Positions 10,106 to 37,322 of a DNA stretch of 64,000 nt are shown one piece after another. Each line of letters opens with the position of its first letter. Position 1 is the first letter of the stretch. This DNA comes from Candidatus Nomurabacteria bacterium (GTDB taxonomy: Bacteria; Patescibacteriota; Minisyncoccia; Phycocordibacterales; UBA9973), in NCBI GenBank assembly GCA_963842815.1, contig CAWJHU010000001.1, positions 264,708 through 328,707 of the forward strand, read 5' to 3'. A model generated the notes under the pieces. The model searched no databases. It saw nothing but the letters and a program-made list of their open reading frames with translations, and was not told the origin of the DNA. The translations under genes and the position numbers were made by a program.

Positions 10106-10810
10106 ATGACATATAGAAAAACTCCTCTAATGTCTGGAGAATATTTTCATGTTTATAATAGAGGGAACAGTAAACAAGAAATTTTTTTAGATGATGAAGA
10201 TAGGAGTCGTTTTGTAAAATTACTTTACCTTTCCAATTCAAAAAAGTATATTAATTTCCGTGACGATATAGTAGGGCAAAAAATAGACGCTTTTGATTTT
10301 GGAAGAGGAGAACCCGTTGTATTCATTGGTGCATGGGTTTTAATGCCTAACCATTTTCATATTTACATAACTTCCCCTGACCCTGGGTCAGGGGAAACAG
10401 AAGAAAGCAAGAAAAATAAGAGGAATAAAGAAAATATTGCCTTTTTTATGAATAAACTTTGCTCAAGTTACGCTAAATATTTTAATAAAAAATATAGCCG
10501 TACAGGGTCTCTTTTTGAAGGGCCATTCAAATCTACTCATATTGAGGACGATAGTCAGGCGAAATATCTTTTTTCATATATACATCTTAATCCAATAAAA
10601 CTCATTGACTCAGGATGGAAAGATAATGGTATTAGTAATATAAAAACGGCGTTAGAACACTTGAATACATACAAGTGGAGTAGTTATCAAGATCATCGTG
10701 GGGTTTTAAGGAAAGAAAATAAAATTCTTAAATTAAATTCTTTTCCTGAATATTTTTCTGATATAAAAGATTTTGATTCAGAAATTATTTCTTGGTTGCA
10801 ATATATGTAA
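10106..10810 (+). CDS. REP-associated tyrosine transposase (RAYT), IS200/IS605 Y1 transposase family; contains an in-frame REP-B insertion
   Basis: GEYFHVYNRG, HUH motif in LMPNHFHIYI and catalytic Tyr region YIHLNPIK. SPDPGSG between the HUH and Tyr motifs is encoded by the palindrome at 10374-10394. A paralogue lies at 36636..37322. Confidence 0.7.
   Translation: MTYRKTPLMSGEYFHVYNRGNSKQEIFLDDEDRSRFVKLLYLSNSKKYINFRDDIVGQKIDAFDFGRGEPVVFIGAWVLMPNHFHIYITSPDPGSGETEESKKNKRNKENIAFFMNKLCSSYAKYFNKKYSRTGSLFEGPFKSTHIEDDSQAKYLFSYIHLNPIKLIDSGWKDNGISNIKTALEHLNTYKWSSYQDHRGVLRKENKILKLNSFPEYFSDIKDFDSEIISWLQYM
10374..10394. repeat. REP-B palindrome copy inserted in-frame within the RAYT CDS
   Basis: cccctgaccctgggtcagggg encodes SPDPGSG; the paralogous RAYT2 lacks this segment. 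Confidence 0.7.
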
Positions 10811-14736: not shown

Positions 14737-14754
14737 AGCCCCGTCGGGTGTTTT

Positions 14755-14774
14755 CCCTGACCCTGGGTCAGGGG
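14755..14774. repeat. REP-B palindrome copy (one C short)
   Basis: ccctgaccctgggtcagggg lies 19 bp after the stop at 14736. Confidence 0.65.
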
Positions 14775-14787
14775 AAACACAAAAAAA

Positions 14788-14823
14788 GGGGCTTTTGAAA
14801 AAGTCCCTTTTTCAAAAGCCCCT
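14788..14823. terminator. bidirectional Rho-independent terminator (GGGGCTTTTGAAAAAG/CTTTTTCAAAAGCCCC hairpin flanked by A- and T-runs)
   Basis: 16-bp perfect stem lying between convergent genes 11539..14736 (+) and 14830..15219 (-). Confidence 0.7.
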
Positions 14824-14829
14824 AATGAG

Positions 14830-15219
14830 TTAATCCCATGTGAATTTTTTTAAATCGTGTCTTGCTGCCCAAAAAAACAAAACATTAAAAAACAGCAAGA
14901 ACAGTAAAACTAAGGGAAGATAAATTACGTTATCCTTTATTGAAAAAATAAAAGACAACATCAGAGAAAGAGAACAAGCTAAAAAGAAAACAAGTTTTAG
15001 ACACTTAATTCTGACACACATAAGTCCCCAAAACAGGAAAAAAAATTTTGTCCCATTTTCATTTTTTATAACGTATTTCTTCAGATCTGATATCTTCCTG
15101 GCTGGTAAGTACTCTCTTGTCCAGTATTTTTCAGCCATCTTCGAGGAAATAAAAAATGAAAAAATTCCCAAAAGATTGATAGCAAAAGCAGAAACATAAA
15201 CCACAATATTATTTTCCAC
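14830..15219 (-). CDS. hypothetical small polytopic membrane protein
   Basis: 129-aa ORF with several hydrophobic segments; its stop abuts the bidirectional terminator. The ORF at 15236..15439 (-) may be a related upstream fragment. Confidence 0.3.
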   Translation of the reverse strand: MENNIVVYVSAFAINLLGIFSFFISSKMAEKYWTREYLPARKISDLKKYVIKNENGTKFFFLFWGLMCVRIKCLKLVFFLACSLSLMLSFIFSIKDNVIYLPLVLLFLLFFNVLFFWAARHDLKKFTWD

Positions 15220-15904
15220 AGCAATTCCTTTCTTTTTATATTTTCTTGAATTTTTTTAGTACACTCGTGGCCCAAAAGTCTAACCCGATATTAAGGCTTA
15301 AAAGCAATATTGAAACAATAAAAATAAAAAGCATTTCATTTCTGAAAATAAATCCGAAAGCACACGACAGTACGCCATAATTATAGTAATTATTACTTTT
15401 GTTTACAGCTTGCAGACCATTCACAAATAGCCATTTCATTATTGTTTTTTTCTATAGTTCACAAAAACGAAAGACTCCAACAAGGAAAGTTCACGTATTC
15501 CCGCTTGGTATTCTTTTTTTGCCAACCATATAAAACAATTTAAACTTAACACACCCTTTAGGCTCAAAAGAGTGAATCCTCCCCAAAAAATAAAAAGAAA
15601 TAAATTCAGTGACATTTTTATACCCTCCTTTTTTTATTGACAGAGAACAAATTAATTAGTTTGTTCTATTATATTACATTTTTGTCTTTTGTCAAATAAA
15701 CTTATAGGAAATACTTATGTTATAATCAAGACTAATGGCAAAACATTTTTTTAAAACATTGGTTATCTTTTTGGTAATTATAGTCCTGGGGCTCATTGGT
15801 ATATTTTTAACAAGCAATTCCGGCGGAAACGGAAGCTCGGCGAATACGCCCAATAATCAAGTGGAAGTTGCAAAATAAAAATATTGTGCTATCCTATAAA
15901 TACC

Positions 15905-16032
15905 GCAAAGAAAATAGGCACAGAAATTTTTCTGGATAAGTCCTGTTTAGTGGGTCGATATCTCTCTGTCTCGGACAGGAGAAATACTTGCGGCGAAAGC
16001 CGTTTTTTTGTTTAAAATTATCGAAAAAAATT
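15905..16032 (+). promoter_or_regulatory. putative structured leader of the rplJ-rplL operon (candidate L10 autoregulatory leader)
   Basis: About 130-nt untranslated region before rplJ containing paired segments (gtcctgtttagtgggtcgatatctctctgtctcggacaggag). Call is by position only; no covariance model was run. Confidence 0.25.
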
Positions 16033-16512
16033 ATGTTACAAAAATCAAAAAAAGAAGAAATGGTAAAAGACCTTGAAAAAGCTATCAAGGGTTCTGAATC
16101 TGTTGTTTTCGTAAATTTTCACGGAATGAAGGTGAGCGACGAAACAATTCTTCGCAGAGGATTGAGAGACCAGGGAGTGGGTTATAAAATTTCCAGAAAA
16201 ACTTTACTAAGACGCGCCCTGACCAAAAAAGCTGAAGGAGAAACACCGGAGCTTACGGGTGAAGTCGCCATGGCTTATTCTAAAGACCAAACCGCATCTC
16301 CACGCGAAATTTATAATTTTCAAAAAACTCACAAGGGTCTTTTGGAGATTCTGGGGGGAATTTTTGAAGGAAAATTCGTGGGCAAAGAAAAAATGATGGA
16401 AATAGCCACCATTCCTTCCAGGGAAGTGCTACTTGGCAAAATTGCCTTCCTGCTCAAATCTCCCATACAACGTTTGGCCATCGCAGTTAATGAAGTTGCC
16501 AAGAAAAAATAA
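16033..16512 (+). CDS. rplJ: 50S ribosomal protein L10
   Basis: MLQKSKKEEMVKDLEKAIKGSESVVFVNFHGMKVSDETILRRGLRDQG... is the typical L10 N-terminus, and the gene sits immediately upstream of rplL. The track ORF begins at 15988; ATG at 16033 is preferred. Confidence 0.85.
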   Translation: MLQKSKKEEMVKDLEKAIKGSESVVFVNFHGMKVSDETILRRGLRDQGVGYKISRKTLLRRALTKKAEGETPELTGEVAMAYSKDQTASPREIYNFQKTHKGLLEILGGIFEGKFVGKEKMMEIATIPSREVLLGKIAFLLKSPIQRLAIAVNEVAKKK

Positions 16513-16537
16513 TTATCAATTAATTTAAAAAAATATC

Positions 16538-16903
16538 ATGTCAAAATTTGATTCATTTATGAAAGACCTTGAAGGCGCATCAGTTTTGGAACTGAATGAG
16601 CTTGTAAAGGCGATAGAAGAAAAGTTTGGAGTTTCCGCAGCCGCTGTGGCCGCCGTTGGTCCTGCTGCAGGCGCTCCAGCAGAAGAGGAAAAAGATTCGT
16701 TTACCGTTGTGCTTGCTTCAGCCGGTGAACAAAAAATAGCCGTAATGAAAGTCGTCAAAGAAGCCCTAGGCCTCGGTTTGAAAGAAGCGAAAGATTTAGT
16801 GGATGCTGCTCCTTCCACCTTGAAAGAGGGGATGAAGAAAGCTGAAGCCGAAGATATCAAGAAAAAAATTGAAGCAGCCGGAGGAAAAATTGAACTCAAA
16901 TAA
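16538..16903 (+). CDS. rplL: 50S ribosomal protein L7/L12
   Basis: 121 aa: N-terminal dimerisation helix, Ala/Pro/Glu hinge ([19 protein letters not shown]), C-terminal domain ...[27 protein letters not shown]...[10 protein letters not shown]. Confidence 0.95.
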
Positions 16904-16943
16904 ATACTTGTTTTTTGCCTAAAAAGCGTTATTATATACGCAT

Positions 16944-17525
16944 ATGGAAATTCTAGGGAAAATATTGGGTAGTCCGGCCAGAGTGAAAATAATGCGCCTT
17001 TTTCTGTTGAATTCCAAGGTTGGTTTTAGCCGAAAAGATATCAAAAAAAGAAGCCGAGTAAGTTCCAATATCGTAAGCCGGGAAATTAAGCTCTTGGCCT
17101 CTGTTGGTTTTGTTAAGAAGCATGGCAAAGTCTGGTTTTTTAACCCGCTTTTTAAATATGGCGGAGAACTGGACAAACTTTTGGTAAATTCCGATAGTTT
17201 GGATAAAAAAACCATTGTGGATAATTTTAGAAAAGTTGGAAGAGTAAAATTTTTACTGGTTTCCGGTATTTTTATTAAAAACAAGGATACCAGAGTAGAT
17301 TTGCTGATTGTGGGGGATAGGATGAAAAAAAGTAAAATTGAAGAGGAAGTGCGCAAGCTTGAAGCGGAAATAGGAACAGAACTTTCCTACGCTATTTTTG
17401 ATACGAAGGAATTTATTTACCGATTGGACATGTACGATAAGCTCGTGCGAGACATTCTTGATTTTCCCCACGAAGTTATTTTCCAAGCTAAAGAGTTATC
17501 CACACAGACTTCAAAAAAAGCCTAG
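16944..17525 (+). CDS. hypothetical protein with N-terminal winged-helix DNA-binding domain and a possible nucleotidyltransferase-like C-terminal region
   Basis: ILGSPARVKIMRLFLLNSKVGFSRKDIKK... reads as wHTH; the later VSGIFIKNKDTRVDLLIVGD resembles a minimal NTase motif only weakly. Confidence 0.35.
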   Translation: MEILGKILGSPARVKIMRLFLLNSKVGFSRKDIKKRSRVSSNIVSREIKLLASVGFVKKHGKVWFFNPLFKYGGELDKLLVNSDSLDKKTIVDNFRKVGRVKFLLVSGIFIKNKDTRVDLLIVGDRMKKSKIEEEVRKLEAEIGTELSYAIFDTKEFIYRLDMYDKLVRDILDFPHEVIFQAKELSTQTSKKA

Positions 17526-17603
17526 AAATTGGTATAATAAACTCATAACTTTTAAAAGGTCGAAACTTAAAAAGTCTTATTAATTAACGTTTTTTTATTT
17601 ATT

Positions 17604-18302
17604 ATGACTAATATTTGGTTAACCTGGGGCGATGTTTTTAATGCGTCACTGCAAAATTTATGGTGGGGCTTTATCCAATTCGCTCCGAAACTCATTTTAG
17701 CTATCGTCTTTTTTGTTATCGGCTGGGTTTTGGGTTCTCTCATCGCCAAAGCCTTTGAACAGGTCTTCAAAGCTTTAAAGATAGACAGTTTTTTCCGTTC
17801 TATTAAGGTAGATAATTTTTTTAGAAAAGCGGGTATGAATCTTAACTCCGGACATTTTGTCGGAGAAGTGGTAAAGTGGTTTGTCATTATTATTTTCCTT
17901 CTTCCTTCCCTTAACCTGATTGGTCTGGATTCCATTGCATCTTTCTTGGAAAATGACGTGTTAGGATTTTTGCCGAAAGTTGTCGTAGCTGCCTTTGTCC
18001 TAATCATTGCTACCATTGTTGCTGATTTTCTTTCCAAAACGATTGTGGCCGGTTCTCGCGCCATGAATCTTAAGTCAGCCAATATGCTTGGCTCTTTGGC
18101 AAAATATGTTATCTGGGTATTTGCCTTCATTATTGCCCTGGGTCAATTGGGAATTGCCGAAGGTTATATGAATATTCTCTTTACCGGTATAATCGGAATG
18201 CTTGCCATCGGTGGCGCTCTGGCTTTTGGCTTGGGTGGCAAAGATGCAGCAGCTCGATTTATTGCAAAAATCGGCGAAGATATGTCTCACAAGGAATACT
18301 AA
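17604..18302 (+). CDS. membrane protein of the conserved-TM-helix repeat family (MscS-associated N-terminal-like)
   Basis: 232 aa with 4-5 TM helices and repeated IxxxxxIIGWVLGSLIAKAFEQ-type helices resembling the conserved-TM-helix repeat. Confidence 0.4.
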   Translation: MTNIWLTWGDVFNASLQNLWWGFIQFAPKLILAIVFFVIGWVLGSLIAKAFEQVFKALKIDSFFRSIKVDNFFRKAGMNLNSGHFVGEVVKWFVIIIFLLPSLNLIGLDSIASFLENDVLGFLPKVVVAAFVLIIATIVADFLSKTIVAGSRAMNLKSANMLGSLAKYVIWVFAFIIALGQLGIAEGYMNILFTGIIGMLAIGGALAFGLGGKDAAARFIAKIGEDMSHKEY

Positions 18303-18337
18303 AAAATAGCTTTAATTTAAGGTTTATTTTAGAAAAA

Positions 18338-18364
18338 AGATGTCCCCAGTTGACATCTTTTTTC
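18338..18364 (+). terminator. Rho-independent terminator (AAGATGTC-CCCAGTT-GACATCTT + T-run)
   Basis: Hairpin followed by TTTTTT, about 35 bp after the stop at 18302. Confidence 0.6.
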
Positions 18365-19152
18365 GTTCTGATATACTCTTTTAATCAGTATGAATATCAC
18401 AAGAAACAGTTTAAAAAGGCGGTTTTAAGCAGGCTTTCTTTTGTCTGTTGGCCGCCTGAAAGGCGGTTTTTTTGTTCACAGTAAGGCTTGAATATTGACA
18501 ACTTAAATCCTGTTCTGGCTTTCGAGGGTCTTTTCAAAGTGCCAGAGACAGGAAAAAATTCTAAAAAATTATTTCCGAGCGGTCGGTTCAATAATTTTTT
18601 TTGAGTTTTGTTTTACCCTGATGTAATGTCAGGGTTGTGGTTTGTAAATTTCTTAACAGGAAATTTAAGGGCGTACGGTGGATGCCTTGACTTTAAGAGG
18701 CGATGAAGGACGTGGCGTTGCTGCGATAAGCTTCGGGGAGGTGCTTAGCTACCTTTGATCCGGAGATTTCCGAATGGGGAAACCCTATCAAGTAAACCTT
18801 GATAATTTTGATCTTTATGCTCAAAATGCGCACCCTGGGAAGTGAAACATCTTAGTACCAGGTGGAAAAGAGACAAATATGAATTTCCCTAGTAGCGGCG
18901 AGCGAAAAGGAAAAAGCCCAAACCGTTCTCGCAAGAGAGCGGGGTTGTAAGATGACAATTTTTATTTAATTAAAGAAGAGTCAAAAAATAAATTATTAGT
19001 TGAAGTTGCTGGAAAGCGACACCATAGGAGGTGATAGTCCCGTAAACGAAAATAATTTATCTCTTTTATTGTTATTCTTGAGTACCCCAGGACATGAATG
19101 GCCGGGGGGAATCCGGCGGAACTAACCGCTAAGGCTAAATACTCTTAAAGAT

Positions 19153-19189
<37 letters not shown>

Positions 19190-19877
19190 CAGCCCGATTA
19201 GGGCGGTGAAATAGACCTGAACCCGTATGTCTACAAGGAGTCGAAGCTAGGTATTTATATCTAGACGACGGCGTGCCTATTGAAGAATGAGCCAACGAGT
19301 TTATTCATATTGCAAGGCTAAGCTGGCTAAAACAGCGCAGCCAAAGGGAAACCGAGTGTTAATAGCGCGAATGAGTAGTATGCATAAGACCCGAAGCCAG
19401 GTGAGCTTGCCATGAGCAGGATGAAGTTCGTCGAAAGACGAATGGAGGTCCGAACCGGTAGATCGTTCAACGTCTTCGGATGACTTGTGGTAAGGAGTGA
19501 AAAGCTAATCGAACCTGGTAATAGCTGGTTCTCTCCGAAATAGCTTTAGGGCTAGCGTCGAGTGTTTTTTCTGGGGGTAGAGCACTGGAAGGTTCGGACA
19601 GGTCGAAAGATCGCTGAACCTATCAAACTCCGAATACCAGAAACCAAAGCTCGGCAGTTAGGCTATGGGGGCGAAGCTCCATTAGCCAAAAGGGAAACAG
19701 CCCAGATCTCAAAATAAGGTCCCTAAATTTATGCTAAGTGTAAAATAAGAAGGTGAAATTTCTCTGACAATGAGGAGGTTGGCTTAGAAGCAGCCATCCT
19801 TTAAAGATAGCGTAACAGCTCACTCATCTAGAGATTTTGCGTCGAAAATAATTGGGGCTAAGCATAGTACCGAATTT

Positions 19878-20222
19878 GAGGATTCGTGAACTTCATAGAG
19901 GAAAAGTTTTTTTTTGTTCTTTGTTTTTATTTTCTTGCTCGGGTAGCTCAAGCGGTGGAGCATTGGATTTTCTTTATAGTCCAAAGGTTGTGGGTTCAAG
20001 TCCCATCCCGGGTACGAAAAGAGGCCATCAGCGATTGGTCTCTTGCTAGATAGATATTGAGAAACTACTATGTCAATTTGATTGAAGCGCAAATAGAACT
20101 TCATGATTTTGATATAGGCAGGTGAGATCCCTGCTCTAGCACTAATTTATTGGCAAACTTTTTTAAAAATTTAATTTTAAAAAAGTTTGCCTCTTCTATG
20201 AAGTTCACGAATGGTAGGAGAG
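19878..20222 (+). other. intervening sequence / expansion in 23S helix 45 (~345 nt) closed by a 20-bp stem; contains a tRNA-like segment and a perfect 40-bp AT-rich hairpin
   Basis: Insertion follows ACCGAATT, where E. coli has the short helix 45. attcgtgaacttcatagagg (19883-19902) pairs with cctcttctatgaagttcacgaat (20194-20216). Internal gggtagctcaagcggtggagca...ggttcaagtccca at 19936-20010 resembles tRNA D- and T-arms. ggcaaacttttttaaaaatttaattttaaaaaagtttgcc spans 20146-20187. Confidence 0.5.
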
Positions 20223-20932
20223 TGTTCCACTCTGCTGTGAAGCAGGACTCGTGAGAGCCTGTGGAGCGTGTGGAAGTAAGAATGTTGGCACAAGTAACCG
20301 CAATGATGCTGAGAACGCATCACGTCGAAAGATCAAGGTTTCCTTGGTAATGTCAATCAGCCAAGGGTTAGTCGGGCCTAAGGGAATGGCGAAAGCCGTA
20401 CTCGATGGACAGCAGGTTAATATTCCTGCACTTCTGTATTTTGTGATGGGAGGACGGAGCGCAGTATGTATTGCTCATTATTGGATTTGAAGTTTGTTTA
20501 TTAAGAATGTTGCATAGGAAAATCCGTGCATTGCCTTTAAGTGGCGCATTCAAGAGAAATGAAAAGTTTTCGACTTCGGTCGAAGGATAATGATACAAAG
20601 CGCGCTTCCAAGAAAAATCTCTAAACTTAAAAATATAGAATCCGTACCGCAAACCGACACAGGTGATCAGGTCGAGTAGACCAAGACGAACGAGTGAGTG
20701 GTCCCCAAGGAACTCGGCAAAAAAGCAGCCGTAACTTCGGGATAAGGCTTGCCCCATATTCTATGTTATGGGGCCGCAGCGAAAGTTTCTCTGGCAACTG
20801 TTTACCAAAAACACAGCTCCCTGCGAACTCGCAAGAGGATGTATAGGGGGTGACACCTGACCAATGCCAGAAGGTCAAATATCGACGGTGCTATGGTCGC
20901 AAGATTGTAGTGCATGATTGATATAAGCCCTG

Positions 20933-20975
<43 letters not shown>

Positions 20976-21630
20976 ACCTTGTCGGGTAAGTTCCGACGCG
21001 CACGAATGGTGTAATGACTGGAGAACTGTCTCGGGGACCAGCTCGGTGAAAATACAATGCCGGTGAAGATGCCGGTTAAGTGCAGTTAGACGAAAAGACC
21101 CTAGAAGCTTTACTATAACTTGATATTGAGCATGTTTTTGGACTGCGTAGCATAGATGGGAGAGGTTTGATGTGTTCGTTTTCGGATGAATTCTACTCGT
21201 CAGTGAAATACCATTCTTTTTGAAGGCATGTTCTAACCAATACGGCAAAAACGTATTGAGACAGTATCTGGTGGATAGTTTTACTGGGGCTGTACCCTCC
21301 TAAAAAGTAAAGGAGGGGTTTAAAGGTCAGCTAGGCGCGAATGGAAACCGTGCCGATAGTGTAATGGCACAAGCTGGCTTGACTGTAAGAGGTACATCTC
21401 AAGCAGGTGGGAAACCAGAACATAGTGATCCGACCATACGCATTAGATGCGGTGGAAGATCAACGGATAAAAGCTACTCTAGGGATAACAGGCTAGTTCC
21501 GCCTAAGAGTTCATATCGACGGCGGAGTTCGGCACCTCGATGTCGGCTCACCTTAGCGCGGCGGTGGAGAAGCTGCCAAGCGTTTGGCTGTTCGCCAATT
21601 AAAAAGGTACGCGAGCTGGGTTCAGACCGT

Positions 21631-21970
21631 TTAGAACCTCACTCGCCCTAACGGATCTTCTCCATGAAATTTCAAGGAGAGGGCTGGGGTGAGGGTTAAA
21701 CAGTTTGAACCCTCAGAGGAAGAAAATTTATTACGAAATTAGAACTGTTATAAATTGAAATCAATCATTGCTAAGTTTTAGCAATCACGGCGGCGCTTTG
21801 TAGAAATACAAAGTGAGCAAGCTAACTTATATCGGAGAAACCCAATTCGCGAAAGCGAAGGACAACGCCGAGGGAAGAGTTATTTACTCACCCGTAGAGA
21901 CTGAATGTTAGCAATCTCGCAATAGATTAATGTCACAGTCCAATCCCATAAGTAATTATGGACGTAGATG
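21631..21970 (+). ncRNA. ORF-less group-I-like intron in 23S rRNA at the position homologous to E. coli ~2593 (I-CreI/I-CeuI homing-site region)
   Basis: Exon sequence GGGTTCAGACCGT | CGTGAGACAGGTTGG is interrupted by 340 nt. The 5' exon ends in T and the insert ends in G (omega-G). Candidate P7 pairing GAGACTG/CAGTCC and a GCGAAAGC GNRA hairpin are present. No ORF of 60 aa or more lies inside. Confidence 0.55.
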
Positions 21971-22301
21971 CGTGAGACAGGTTGGTCTCCTATCTACTGC
22001 ACTCGTTGATTCTTGAGAAGATTTGTTTCTAGTACGAGAGGACCGAAATGAACTGACCTCTGGTGTACGAGCTCTCCTGCCAAGGGCAATGCTCGGTAGC
22101 TATGTCGGGATTGGATAACCTCTGAAAGCATCTAAGAGGGAAGCCAGCTTCAAGATTAGGAATCGTTAAGAACCGTGAGAGATGATCACGTTGATAGGCT
22201 TTAAGTGTAAGCGCAGTAATGCGTTGAGCTGAGAAGTACTAATGTTTCGATTCCTGTTAAGAAATTTGCAAACCACAAAAAATAATAAACTTGAATATAG
22301 T

Positions 22302-22413
22302 GTTCTGGTGCTTTGACGATGGAGAAACATCTCTTCCCATTCCGAACAGAGCAATTAAGCCCATTAGTACCGATGATAGTCCCTTGGGGCGAAAGTAGGT
22401 AAGCGCCAGAACA
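22302..22413 (+). rRNA. rrf: 5S ribosomal RNA
   Basis: gttctggtgctttgacgatggagaaacatctcttcccattccgaacagagcaattaagccc...gcgccagaaca has terminal helix pairing and the CCGAACAGAG motif, 40 nt after the 23S 3' end. Confidence 0.85.
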
Positions 22414-36595: not shown

Positions 36596-37316
36596 CTACG
36601 GAGGCGTTGCCTCCGTAGCCGTCTCCGTGGATGAATTATTCGTCGTTAAAACTTAGCCATTCAAACAGCTCTTTTTTATAATCAGTCAGTTTTTTAAAAT
36701 AAGCGGGAAATTCTGATGGATTTATAATTTTAAATTTTCCATCTTTGTATTCTTCCATGCTTGAATATGGATATTCAAAAACATATTGTAAAAGTTTCGT
36801 TAAAGGTTTGTTTCTTTCTTCTTTCCAATTTTTGTCTATCAATTTAGCGGGATTTAAATGTATATAGGAATATATGTATTTTAAATATCTATCGTTGTTT
36901 ATGTGGATTGATTTAAATACTCCTTCATATAATTTGCCTGTTCGTTCATATTTTTTATTGAAATACATTGAATAACTAGTCATTAATTTATGTATGTATT
37001 TAGAAATTCCATTTTCTGTCTTTTCACGAACAAGAATATGAAAATGATTTGGCATTAAGCAATATGCTCCTATATTAACTATAGTTTTTCCACGATCAAA
37101 ATTTTTGCCAATATTTCTTAACTCTATACTTTTTGTTGTATTACAAATATGCATTAAAAACAAAAAGTGCTCATAATCTTTTTTATCTATAAAAATAACC
37201 CTTTTTTCCGTTCCACGATTATATAAATGATAATACTCGTTTGGAGCGAAAGATTGTTTTCTTAAGGCCATTTGTTGATTATAACAAAAGGGGACTACGG
37301 AGGCAACGCCTCCGTG
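36596..37316 (-). mobile_element. REP-RAYT unit 2: second Y1 (RAYT-like) transposase gene bracketed by REP-C palindromes (ACGGAGGC-GTT/AAC-GCCTCCGT) and by an imperfect ~25-bp direct repeat of the adjacent gene terminus
   Basis: CTACGGAGGCGTTGCCTCCGTAG at 36596-36618 and CTACGGAGGCAACGCCTCCGTG at 37295-37316. ttaggaagttggagttgttgttgtaac (36571-36597) matches ttaagaggtcggagttgttgttgtagt (37325-37351) at 22 of 25 positions. Confidence 0.6.
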
Positions 37317-37322
37317 TCTCAT
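36636..37322 (-). CDS. REP-associated tyrosine transposase (RAYT), IS200/IS605 Y1 family, paralogue of 10106..10810 (likely true start MALRKQ at 37271; the first 17 codons of the track ORF are encoded by the REP-C palindrome)
   Basis: NEYYHLYNRG, HUH motif CLMPNHFHILV, Tyr region YIHLNPAKL; the Tyr-rich C-terminal tail resembles RAYT1. Confidence 0.7.
   Translation of the reverse strand: MRHGGVASVVPFCYNQQMALRKQSFAPNEYYHLYNRGTEKRVIFIDKKDYEHFLFLMHICNTTKSIELRNIGKNFDRGKTIVNIGAYCLMPNHFHILVREKTENGISKYIHKLMTSYSMYFNKKYERTGKLYEGVFKSIHINNDRYLKYIYSYIHLNPAKLIDKNWKEERNKPLTKLLQYVFEYPYSSMEEYKDGKFKIINPSEFPAYFKKLTDYKKELFEWLSFNDE

Follow-up and report, generated by a model that had tools for sequence, protein, structure and literature searches.

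The stretch of DNA analysed here (64,000 nucleotides (nt), hereafter the window; positions 264,708–328,707 of contig CAWJHU010000001.1) comes from an uncultured Nomurabacteria member of the Candidate Phyla Radiation (CPR)/Patescibacteria, a host without enterobacterial affiliation, and carries a 23S ribosomal RNA (rRNA) gene that is interrupted at helix 45 by a 331-nt insert. By its site, its closing stem, its size and its sporadic occurrence, this insert is a 23S intervening sequence (IVS), and within it lies a cloverleaf that resembles a transfer RNA (tRNA) and cannot decode. By analogy with characterised processing systems, we put at about 55% the probability that the insert is an IVS of the RNase III-excised type, in which the tRNA-shaped, non-decoding module serves as a 't-element', that is, as a processing or product module. 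Related cassettes, closed by the same covarying stem, were found at four kinds of site, all of them within rRNA operons.

Results

A hairpin-bounded insert at the apex of helix 45

The 23S gene that hosts the insert (18654–22261, on the + strand, as are all features of the insert described below; Rfam LSU_rRNA_bacteria, 2318.9 bits) is 3608 nt long, compared with 2925 positions in the model. Alignment with a reference 23S gene (L082, NZ_AP027616.1, used for rough numbering only) opened a gap of 316 nt at helix 45 (reference position 1185), and relatives with flanks 91–95% identical set the boundaries of the whole cassette at 19882–20212. These limits agree with an inverted repeat and with a difference in GC content, which is 36% in the insert and 46% in the remainder of the 23S gene. 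The reference itself, returned as the best 'E. coli' 23S match, is a 2911-base-pair (bp) circular 'plasmid' record holding a 23S gene only; its 5' end is unlike E. coli 23S, and the record is probably an assembly artefact or a contaminant.

The insert is closed by a 5' arm, ATTCGTGAACTTCATAGAGGA (19882–19902), and a 3' arm, TCTTCTATGAAGTTCACGAAT (20192–20212), which are 21 nt long, 95% complementary with one G·U pair, and form a duplex of −33.2 kcal/mol; the arm sequence has no other occurrence in the 64-kb window. An earlier reading of the sequence alone (the original prediction) had put an insertion at the tip of helix 45 and given it a long base-paired closing stem like those that RNase III cuts in helix-45 IVSs. 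Both parts hold: four close relatives (L051, L069, L074 and L078) have a plain helix 45 of ~42 nt, and the stem is comparable with the 28-bp stem of Coxiella. The coordinates then given for the stem (19883–19902 with 20194–20216) were nearly right and are shifted slightly here, and the 'perfect 40-bp hairpin' described inside the insert is a perfect hairpin of 40 nt, with 17 bp. Helix 45 was also correctly named as an IVS site; the enterobacterial precedent invoked for it serves as an analogy only, because the host belongs to the CPR. Folding, proposed at the time as a check, gave a highly stable structure for the whole insert (−129.2 kcal/mol; z = −8.2 versus shuffled sequences).

Between the arms lie a U-rich leader motif, TTTGTTCTTT (19913–19922, with the core GTTCTTT), the tRNA-like cloverleaf (19937–20014), a CGAAA segment (20015–20019), a short predicted hairpin, AGAGGCCATCAGCGATTGGTCTCT (20020–20043), a central folded domain (20045–20142) and a terminal hairpin (20152–20191), whose perfect 17-bp stem and 6-nt loop end 1 nt before the 3' arm. 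The central domain contains an exact 9-nt copy of the arm core, GAACTTCAT, at 20096–20104. By its sequence this copy could pair with the 3' arm at 20198–20206, in competition with the true 5' arm, and it may be left over from another cassette, nested or in tandem, or may provide an alternative conformation.

Several other identities for parts of the insert were considered and set aside. A covariance model search of 19850–20260 found no Intron_gpI match at E ≤ 1, and other Rfam families, tRNA excepted, gave only weak matches at chance level. As for an internal promoter, the sense strand holds no sigma-70-like site, the hexamers TTGTTC and TATTTT lying just 8 nt apart. The terminal hairpin was flagged as terminator-like, which is unlikely to be its role since its 'tail' is the paired 3' arm.

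A complete cloverleaf with a disrupted anticodon loop

The segment at 19937–20014 was identified as a tRNA-like cloverleaf by the Rfam tRNA model (55.2 bits against a gathering score of 29; E 3.7e-9), by ARAGORN, and by a covariance model of our own (52.5 bits, E 5e-13). The training set of this last model consisted solely of 18 real tRNAs from these genomes; real tRNAs score 57–87 bits with it, and its E-values are rough because the calibration was shortened. The cmscan alignment contains every element of the cloverleaf: a 7-bp acceptor stem (GCUCGGG/CCCGGGU, 19937–43 with 20007–13), intact D (19946–61) and T (19990–20006) arms, and a 5-bp anticodon stem (19963–67 with 19980–84). The anticodon loop spans 12 nt (19968–19979; UUUUCUUUAUAG), where a normal loop has 7 nt with U33, so the module lacks what decoding requires and cannot decode. 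The original prediction had noted a tRNA-like segment with just such an oversized, anticodon-type loop, and the present scores and alignment confirm it. The discriminator base is an A at 20014, and CCA is not encoded. At 51% GC the module forms an island in the rest of the insert (32%), and with our model it scores 10–28 bits below the real tRNAs of the window. In having a non-decoding fold with intact acceptor and T arms, set inside a longer transcript, the module has the structure by which t-elements are defined.

Two short motifs flank the module. In addition to the U-rich leader, the CGAAA segment directly follows the discriminator; its GAAA is predicted to pair with UUUC just 5' of the acceptor, and CGAA(A) likewise stands 3' of the tRNA-like module in several relatives.

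ARAGORN, another of the checks first proposed, called the segment 'tRNA-Glu(ttc)'. This is one of several spurious calls of that program in rRNA, which comprise tRNA-Glu(ttc) at 19937–20015 of the window, tRNA-Asn in the relative L006 and tRNA-Ser in L018. Attempts to trace the module to an isotype were unsuccessful: blastn against E. coli genomes returned only 26 nt of a tRNA-Leu T-arm (E = 2), and comparison with 60 real tRNAs of the relatives gave global identities that peak at 72% and favour no isotype.

The insert is dispensable and sporadic among close relatives

Relatives were found through the RodA protein, which is encoded 1.8 kb downstream; at least 80 loci (65–85% amino-acid identity) were recovered, nearly all from metagenome-assembled genomes labelled Candidatus Nomurabacteria, Paceibacterota or Patescibacteria. 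Sampling covered the rodA neighbourhood together with an exact 3'-junction pattern, in metagenome-assembled genomes and metagenome contigs throughout. Ten relatives keep a 23S gene upstream of rodA, with flanks 88–95% identical to those of the window. Helix 45 is plain in the four named above, is extended in one (L080, a bare stem of 83 nt), and carries inserts of 188–508 nt in the remaining five. The insert sizes in relatives are accordingly 0, ~40, 188, 360, 366, ~390 and 508 nt, and at least nine further distinct inserts of 190–600 nt were identified by scanning metagenomes with the 3' junction. The inserts, 170–600 nt long overall, share a closing stem (GGATTCGTGAAYTTCATAGAGG ... CCTCTATGAAGTTCACGARTGG), and their interiors are unalignable. 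The helix-45 insert is therefore dispensable and sporadic among close relatives.

One cassette architecture at four sites

A fuzzy search requiring both arms (≤5 mismatches in each) was run over the 1.21 Mb of examined sequence, and all arm pairs that it returned lie within rRNA operons. The consensus of one arm is TTCRTRRAYTTYRTWGAGG. The cassettes, 18 in all, occupy four kinds of site: helix 45, a hairpin in 23S domain I, a loop of a group I intron, and the 23S–5S spacer. The domain-I copy is a second cassette of L085, at LSU model positions 274–298 in the Rfam alignment. In L018, a full cassette (664–942), complete with arms, two tRNA-likes, GTTCTTT and terminal hairpin, is nested in a peripheral loop of a group I intron near the 23S 3' end. 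In L029 and L076, a cassette follows the 3' processing stem of the 23S and precedes the 5S gene.

Among the 16 distinct cassettes on which covariation was measured, 99.7% of the cells of the 20-bp closing stem pair. Double changes that preserve pairing affect 9 of the 20 pairs; in the intron and spacer copies, for instance, A-U replaces G-C at four positions. These values were reached in none of 500 shuffles, and controls with slid arms paired in 26–48% of cells. Pairing in the closing stem is thus maintained by selection. In addition, a hairpin of 7–17 bp, with no common sequence, ends 0–1 nt before the 3' arm in all 18 cassettes.

The arms are conserved although the sites are unrelated, which is indicative of duplication or transposition. 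No direct repeats that could represent a target-site duplication flank any cassette. With respect to miniature inverted-repeat transposable elements and similar transposon-type elements, the terminal inverted repeats and the copies at different sites are present, and dispersed genomic copies are absent from the 1.21 Mb examined. Carriage by phages was also considered and rejected: searching IMG/VR with two arm patterns gave nine loci, all with single arms in unrelated sequence and no partner arm.

Cargo comprises tRNA-like modules or small open reading frames

Because Rfam E-values are scaled by 4227 families, our single-family model was needed here; the Rfam tRNA model at E < 0.5 missed all of the weaker modules. 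With our model, cassettes of six relatives gave matches: L018 (62.7 and 17.6 bits), L006 (53.8 bits), L046 (45.2 bits), L087 (42.3 and 15.0 bits), L083 (26.0 bits) and L076 (15.5 bits). When searches were run with filters off, every match at E < 0.1 was either a real tRNA gene or an rRNA-embedded element, in a cassette or in the 23S–5S spacer; the intron-split initiator tRNA of L006 (E 0.069) was counted as a real tRNA gene. That gene (19390–19695, − strand) is an initiator-type tRNA-Met with a group I intron in its anticodon loop (Rfam, 75.2 bits), which fits recent reports of intron-bearing tRNAs in Patescibacteria.

Spacer homologues lie directly upstream of the 5S gene in L029, L076, L079 and L080. 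Those of L080 (8724–8799, 60.0 bits) and L079 (1023–1120, 30.8–47.1 bits, the lower value being that of our model) have a different closing stem, and a motif of the (C)GTTCTTT type, CTGTTCTTT or CGTTCTTT, stands nearby.

Every well-scoring tRNA-like has an aberrant anticodon loop, while its acceptor, D and T arms are largely intact. The loop measures 10 nt in L046, 8 nt in L080 and ~34 nt in L079, where it contains a 27-nt insertion. The L006 module has a 7-nt loop with the anticodon GUU, tRNA-Asn-like U1-A72 and G73, and a G33 in place of the universal U33. The second L018 module has the anticodon AGA (Ser) and lacks the long variable arm that tRNA-Ser has, and the first has a 32-nt insertion in its D-loop; this first module also has an anticodon loop of the Ile-GAU type and an encoded ACCA end.

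The flanking motifs accompany these modules. The GTTCTTT core occurs on the sense strand in 13 of the 14 cassettes that lack an open reading frame (ORF), and its 14 occurrences in 5759 nt of cassette sequence represent a 15-fold excess over the 0.94 expected (Poisson P ~2e-12, with related cassettes counted as independent). Among 85 tRNA calls by ARAGORN, only rRNA-embedded ones combine GTTCTTT upstream with CGAA downstream; the real tRNA genes of the window have neither.

The other four of the 18 cassettes, namely both copies of L085 (5755–6007 and 7026–7332, − strand) and those of L089 (4092–4323, − strand) and L096 (109–372), carry an ORF and no tRNA-like module. A Shine-Dalgarno sequence precedes the ORF in L089 and in the domain-I copy of L085, and in L096 a GGAGG stands 7 bases 5' of an internal ATG. 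The products of three of these ORFs are peptides of ~48 residues that each contain a single hydrophobic segment; a Pfam search with all four ORFs identified no family. The ~48-residue peptides recall small membrane proteins or the toxins of type I systems.

Setting of the insert in the rRNA operon and the window

The 23S gene is followed by a 5S gene (22304–22411, + strand; Rfam, 58.2 bits) and is itself enclosed by a 28-bp processing stem (5' strand 18635–18662, + strand, pairing with 22251–22278; RNAduplex −42.0 kcal/mol), so the transcript of the window already has one long double-stranded processing helix. No 16S gene was found in the window or in any relative locus examined, and the absence of one before the 23S–5S unit indicates that the rRNA genes are unlinked in the window genome. 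The region upstream of this unit (14737–18653) contains rplJ (15988–16512), probably rplL, an ORF of unknown nature and a gene for an MscS-like channel.

A second insertion of ~310 nt (21650–21962, LSU model position ~2620) represents a group I intron of compact form that scores below threshold (29.3 bits and E 1.4e-5 with Rfam Intron_gpI, at 21752–21962), and L012 and L007 have stronger intron matches at the equivalent site. Insertions are present in 82% of CPR 23S genes (PMC11270868).

Elsewhere in the window, two ORFs of ~230 amino acids (10106–10810, + strand, and 36636–37322, − strand) show weak similarity to IS200-like Y1 transposases or REP-associated tyrosine transposases; the NCBIfam hit (E 3e-9) falls short of the curated cut-off, and Pfam Y1_Tnp gives E 9e-9. 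Enzymes of this kind use DNA hairpins as substrates, but nothing was found that connects these two ORFs with the rRNA cassettes.

Discussion

A proposed excised IVS with a tRNA-shaped processing module

We propose that the pre-23S transcript includes the cassette, and that RNase III or a relative with specificity for double strands would cut the closing stem, leaving a fragmented but functional 23S rRNA and a released cassette RNA. The terminal hairpin, placed near the 3' end of the released RNA, could shield it against 3' exonucleases, and the tRNA-shaped module would act as a t-element: a cleavage signal within the cassette itself, at which the released RNA would be broken up or matured, with a small tRNA-like RNA as a possible product. 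That the module keeps the parts read by RNase P and RNase Z and has lost the part used for decoding makes a t-element its most likely identity. Hairpin-shielded release also fits the sister cassettes that resemble small mRNAs (Shine-Dalgarno sequence, ORF and hairpin), a cargo that would serve no purpose unless the cassette RNA were set free.

This proposal has precedents. RNase III cuts the 28-bp helix-45 stem of Coxiella in mid-stem in vitro (PMC4990558). Brown 2015 reportedly predicted, from a comparison of genes with transcripts, that most CPR rRNA insertions are introns and hence removed from the mature rRNA. In Haloferax, tRNase Z matures 5S rRNA at a tRNA-like structure, and t-elements define transcript ends in plant mitochondria. 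Of the three origins offered in the original prediction (a degenerate tRNA, a tRNA-mimic processing signal or a mobile-element remnant), the comparative data strengthen the last two.

Several points weigh against this proposal. Excision, the nucleases and their cleavage sites, the role of the released RNA and mobility are all features that we infer. A tblastn search with E. coli Rnc found no RNase III gene in 1.2 Mb of sequence, a small part of these genomes, and neither 20 window ORFs (Pfam) nor the examined loci, again a small genome fraction, yielded a gene for RNase III, RNase P or RNase Z. RNase Z might be impeded by the C that stands 3' of the discriminator, in view of the specificity of the Bacillus enzyme. 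Five of the 14 ORF-less cassettes (L012, L020, L086, L088 and L092) gave no tRNA match at E ≤ 5–10, and those of L007 and L029 gave one only at E 1.6–1.8. By eye, several of these seven contain an acceptor-like stem and arm fragments, which were not counted; the seven cassettes without a convincing match imply that a cassette can do without the module, which may be in decay. Identity among the tRNA-like bodies is 53–68%, compared with 65–74% to unrelated real tRNAs; with no excess of mutual identity, these values fit both common descent under structural constraint and repeated capture. Finally, GTTCTTT has no complement in the rRNA operon.

A wider reading, which we hold only tentatively, is that the insert is one copy of a mobile cassette system specific to CPR rRNA operons. 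Such hairpin-bounded cassettes would settle in apical loops and spacers, use the rRNA promoter, be released by a double-strand RNase with a hairpin guarding the 3' end, and carry interchangeable cargo, either tRNA-shaped RNAs or ~48-residue membrane peptides, and the released tRNA-like RNA would be functional. Its function might be, for instance, to divert nucleases that target tRNAs, to prime cassette mobility or offer a recognition handle for it, or to regulate translation factors.

Alternative explanations

The main competing explanation, which we regard as rather unlikely, holds that the insert is a neutral or selfish IVS that captured a tRNA gene, now eroding, and that the cloverleaf and its flanking motifs have no function. 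It is consistent with cargo that is swapped or absent (ORFs in L085, L089 and L096; a bare stem at helix 45 of L080), with tRNA scores that run continuously from 63 bits down to undetectable, with the complete lack of an insert in some close relatives and with the lack of specific similarity among the tRNA-like bodies. Erosion of this kind does not readily account for the pattern of damage, however, which is focused on the anticodon loop: across several lineages 20–21 stem pairs and the D- and T-loop signatures are kept, in inserts that are otherwise unalignable between those lineages and have a GC content of only 32%. Moreover, the GTTCTTT and CGAA flanks accompany the module at four sites, and similar non-decoding tRNA-likes lie in the 23S–5S spacer, where a processing role has precedent.

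It is improbable that the insert is instead a retained expansion segment on the 50S surface at helix 45, with a tRNA-shaped domain that might recruit tRNA-binding factors. Retention would suit the surface position of helix 45 and its tolerance of insertions, the high stability of the fold (the z-score given above) and the fact that excision in this lineage is argued from analogy. Against this, the segment varies in sequence and from 0 to 600 nt in size among close relatives, the same cassette is found in a spacer and an intron, outside the ribosome, sister cassettes carry Shine-Dalgarno sequences and ORFs, and the closing stem is an ideal substrate for a double-strand nuclease. The prediction attributed to Brown 2015, that most CPR rRNA insertions are introns, also implies removal.

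Although tRNAs are normal in 16S–23S spacers, the window module exceeds the Rfam gathering score and is called tRNA-Glu by ARAGORN, and its L006 homologue combines a 7-nt loop with GUU, U1-A72 and a tRNA-Asn-like G73, a working tRNA gene nested in the operon, released by processing and used in translation is highly improbable, given the 12-nt loop in the window, the homologues with loops of 8, 10 or ~34 nt, with G33 or with an anticodon inconsistent with the body, and the deficit of 10–28 bits relative to the real tRNAs of the window.

Significance and comparison with known systems

IVSs of 23S rRNA have been known for ~35 years, and their origin, spread and purpose have stayed unclear; the cassette family offers a concrete model of how they are built and how they may move. 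If the t-element proposal is correct, tRNA-like processing signals, described in archaea and organelles, would extend to bacteria and to a site inside an rRNA. The cassettes also partly explain the very common 'short non-intron insertions' of CPR 23S genes. There is a practical consequence too, since tRNA finders call such modules as genes: automated annotation would add spurious tRNAs within 23S genes, and the tRNA complements of the reduced CPR genomes can be distorted.

Tsurumaki et al. 2024 (J Bacteriol; PMC11270868) reported many short non-intron insertions at two sites of CPR 23S genes that match known IVS sites, and guessed, without further analysis, that these were RNase III-type elements. 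The word 'tRNA' is absent from the main text of that paper, which describes no cassette architecture, cargo or multi-site distribution. Searches of an open-access full-text library returned no account of a tRNA, or of anything tRNA-like, within a 23S IVS, whether in CPR/Patescibacteria or elsewhere. The tRNA-like cargo, the modular anatomy of the cassette and its multi-site distribution restricted to rRNA operons are new here.

The closest counterparts are the RNase III-excised helix-45 IVSs of Coxiella burnetii, Salmonella, Leptospira and Campylobacter, which share with the window insert the helix-45 apex, a stem of 20–28 bp, a length of a few hundred nt, a GC content below that of the host rRNA, a sporadic presence and, in some members, an ORF. 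Those elements carry either nothing or an S23p ORF, whereas the cargo of the window insert is a tRNA-shaped RNA. The present family also differs in its invariant terminal hairpin at the 3' arm, in its conserved GTTCTTT leader, in the occurrence of its arms at three further sites of the rRNA operon, including a group I intron, and in its CPR host, in which cleavage is proposed by analogy.

The t-elements of the Haloferax volcanii pre-5S rRNA and of plant mitochondria likewise have the shape of a tRNA without its decoding function and form part of an extended transcript, inside an rRNA or beside one, and the Haloferax element lies upstream of 5S, as do the spacer homologues of L029, L076, L079 and L080. 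By contrast, the window element stands inside an intervening sequence and not at a mature end, and belongs to a bacterial host of the CPR, in which its cleavage is proposed. Finally, a tRNA-shaped unit also separates rRNA pieces in the case of spacer tRNAs, of mitochondrial 'tRNA punctuation' and of the Tetrahymena mitochondrial large-subunit rRNA, which is split by a tRNA gene. There, as envisaged for the window, tRNA-processing enzymes would separate the pieces; in those systems the separating units are functional, decoding tRNAs, whereas the unit in the window has a disrupted anticodon loop and a double-stranded enclosing stem of its own.

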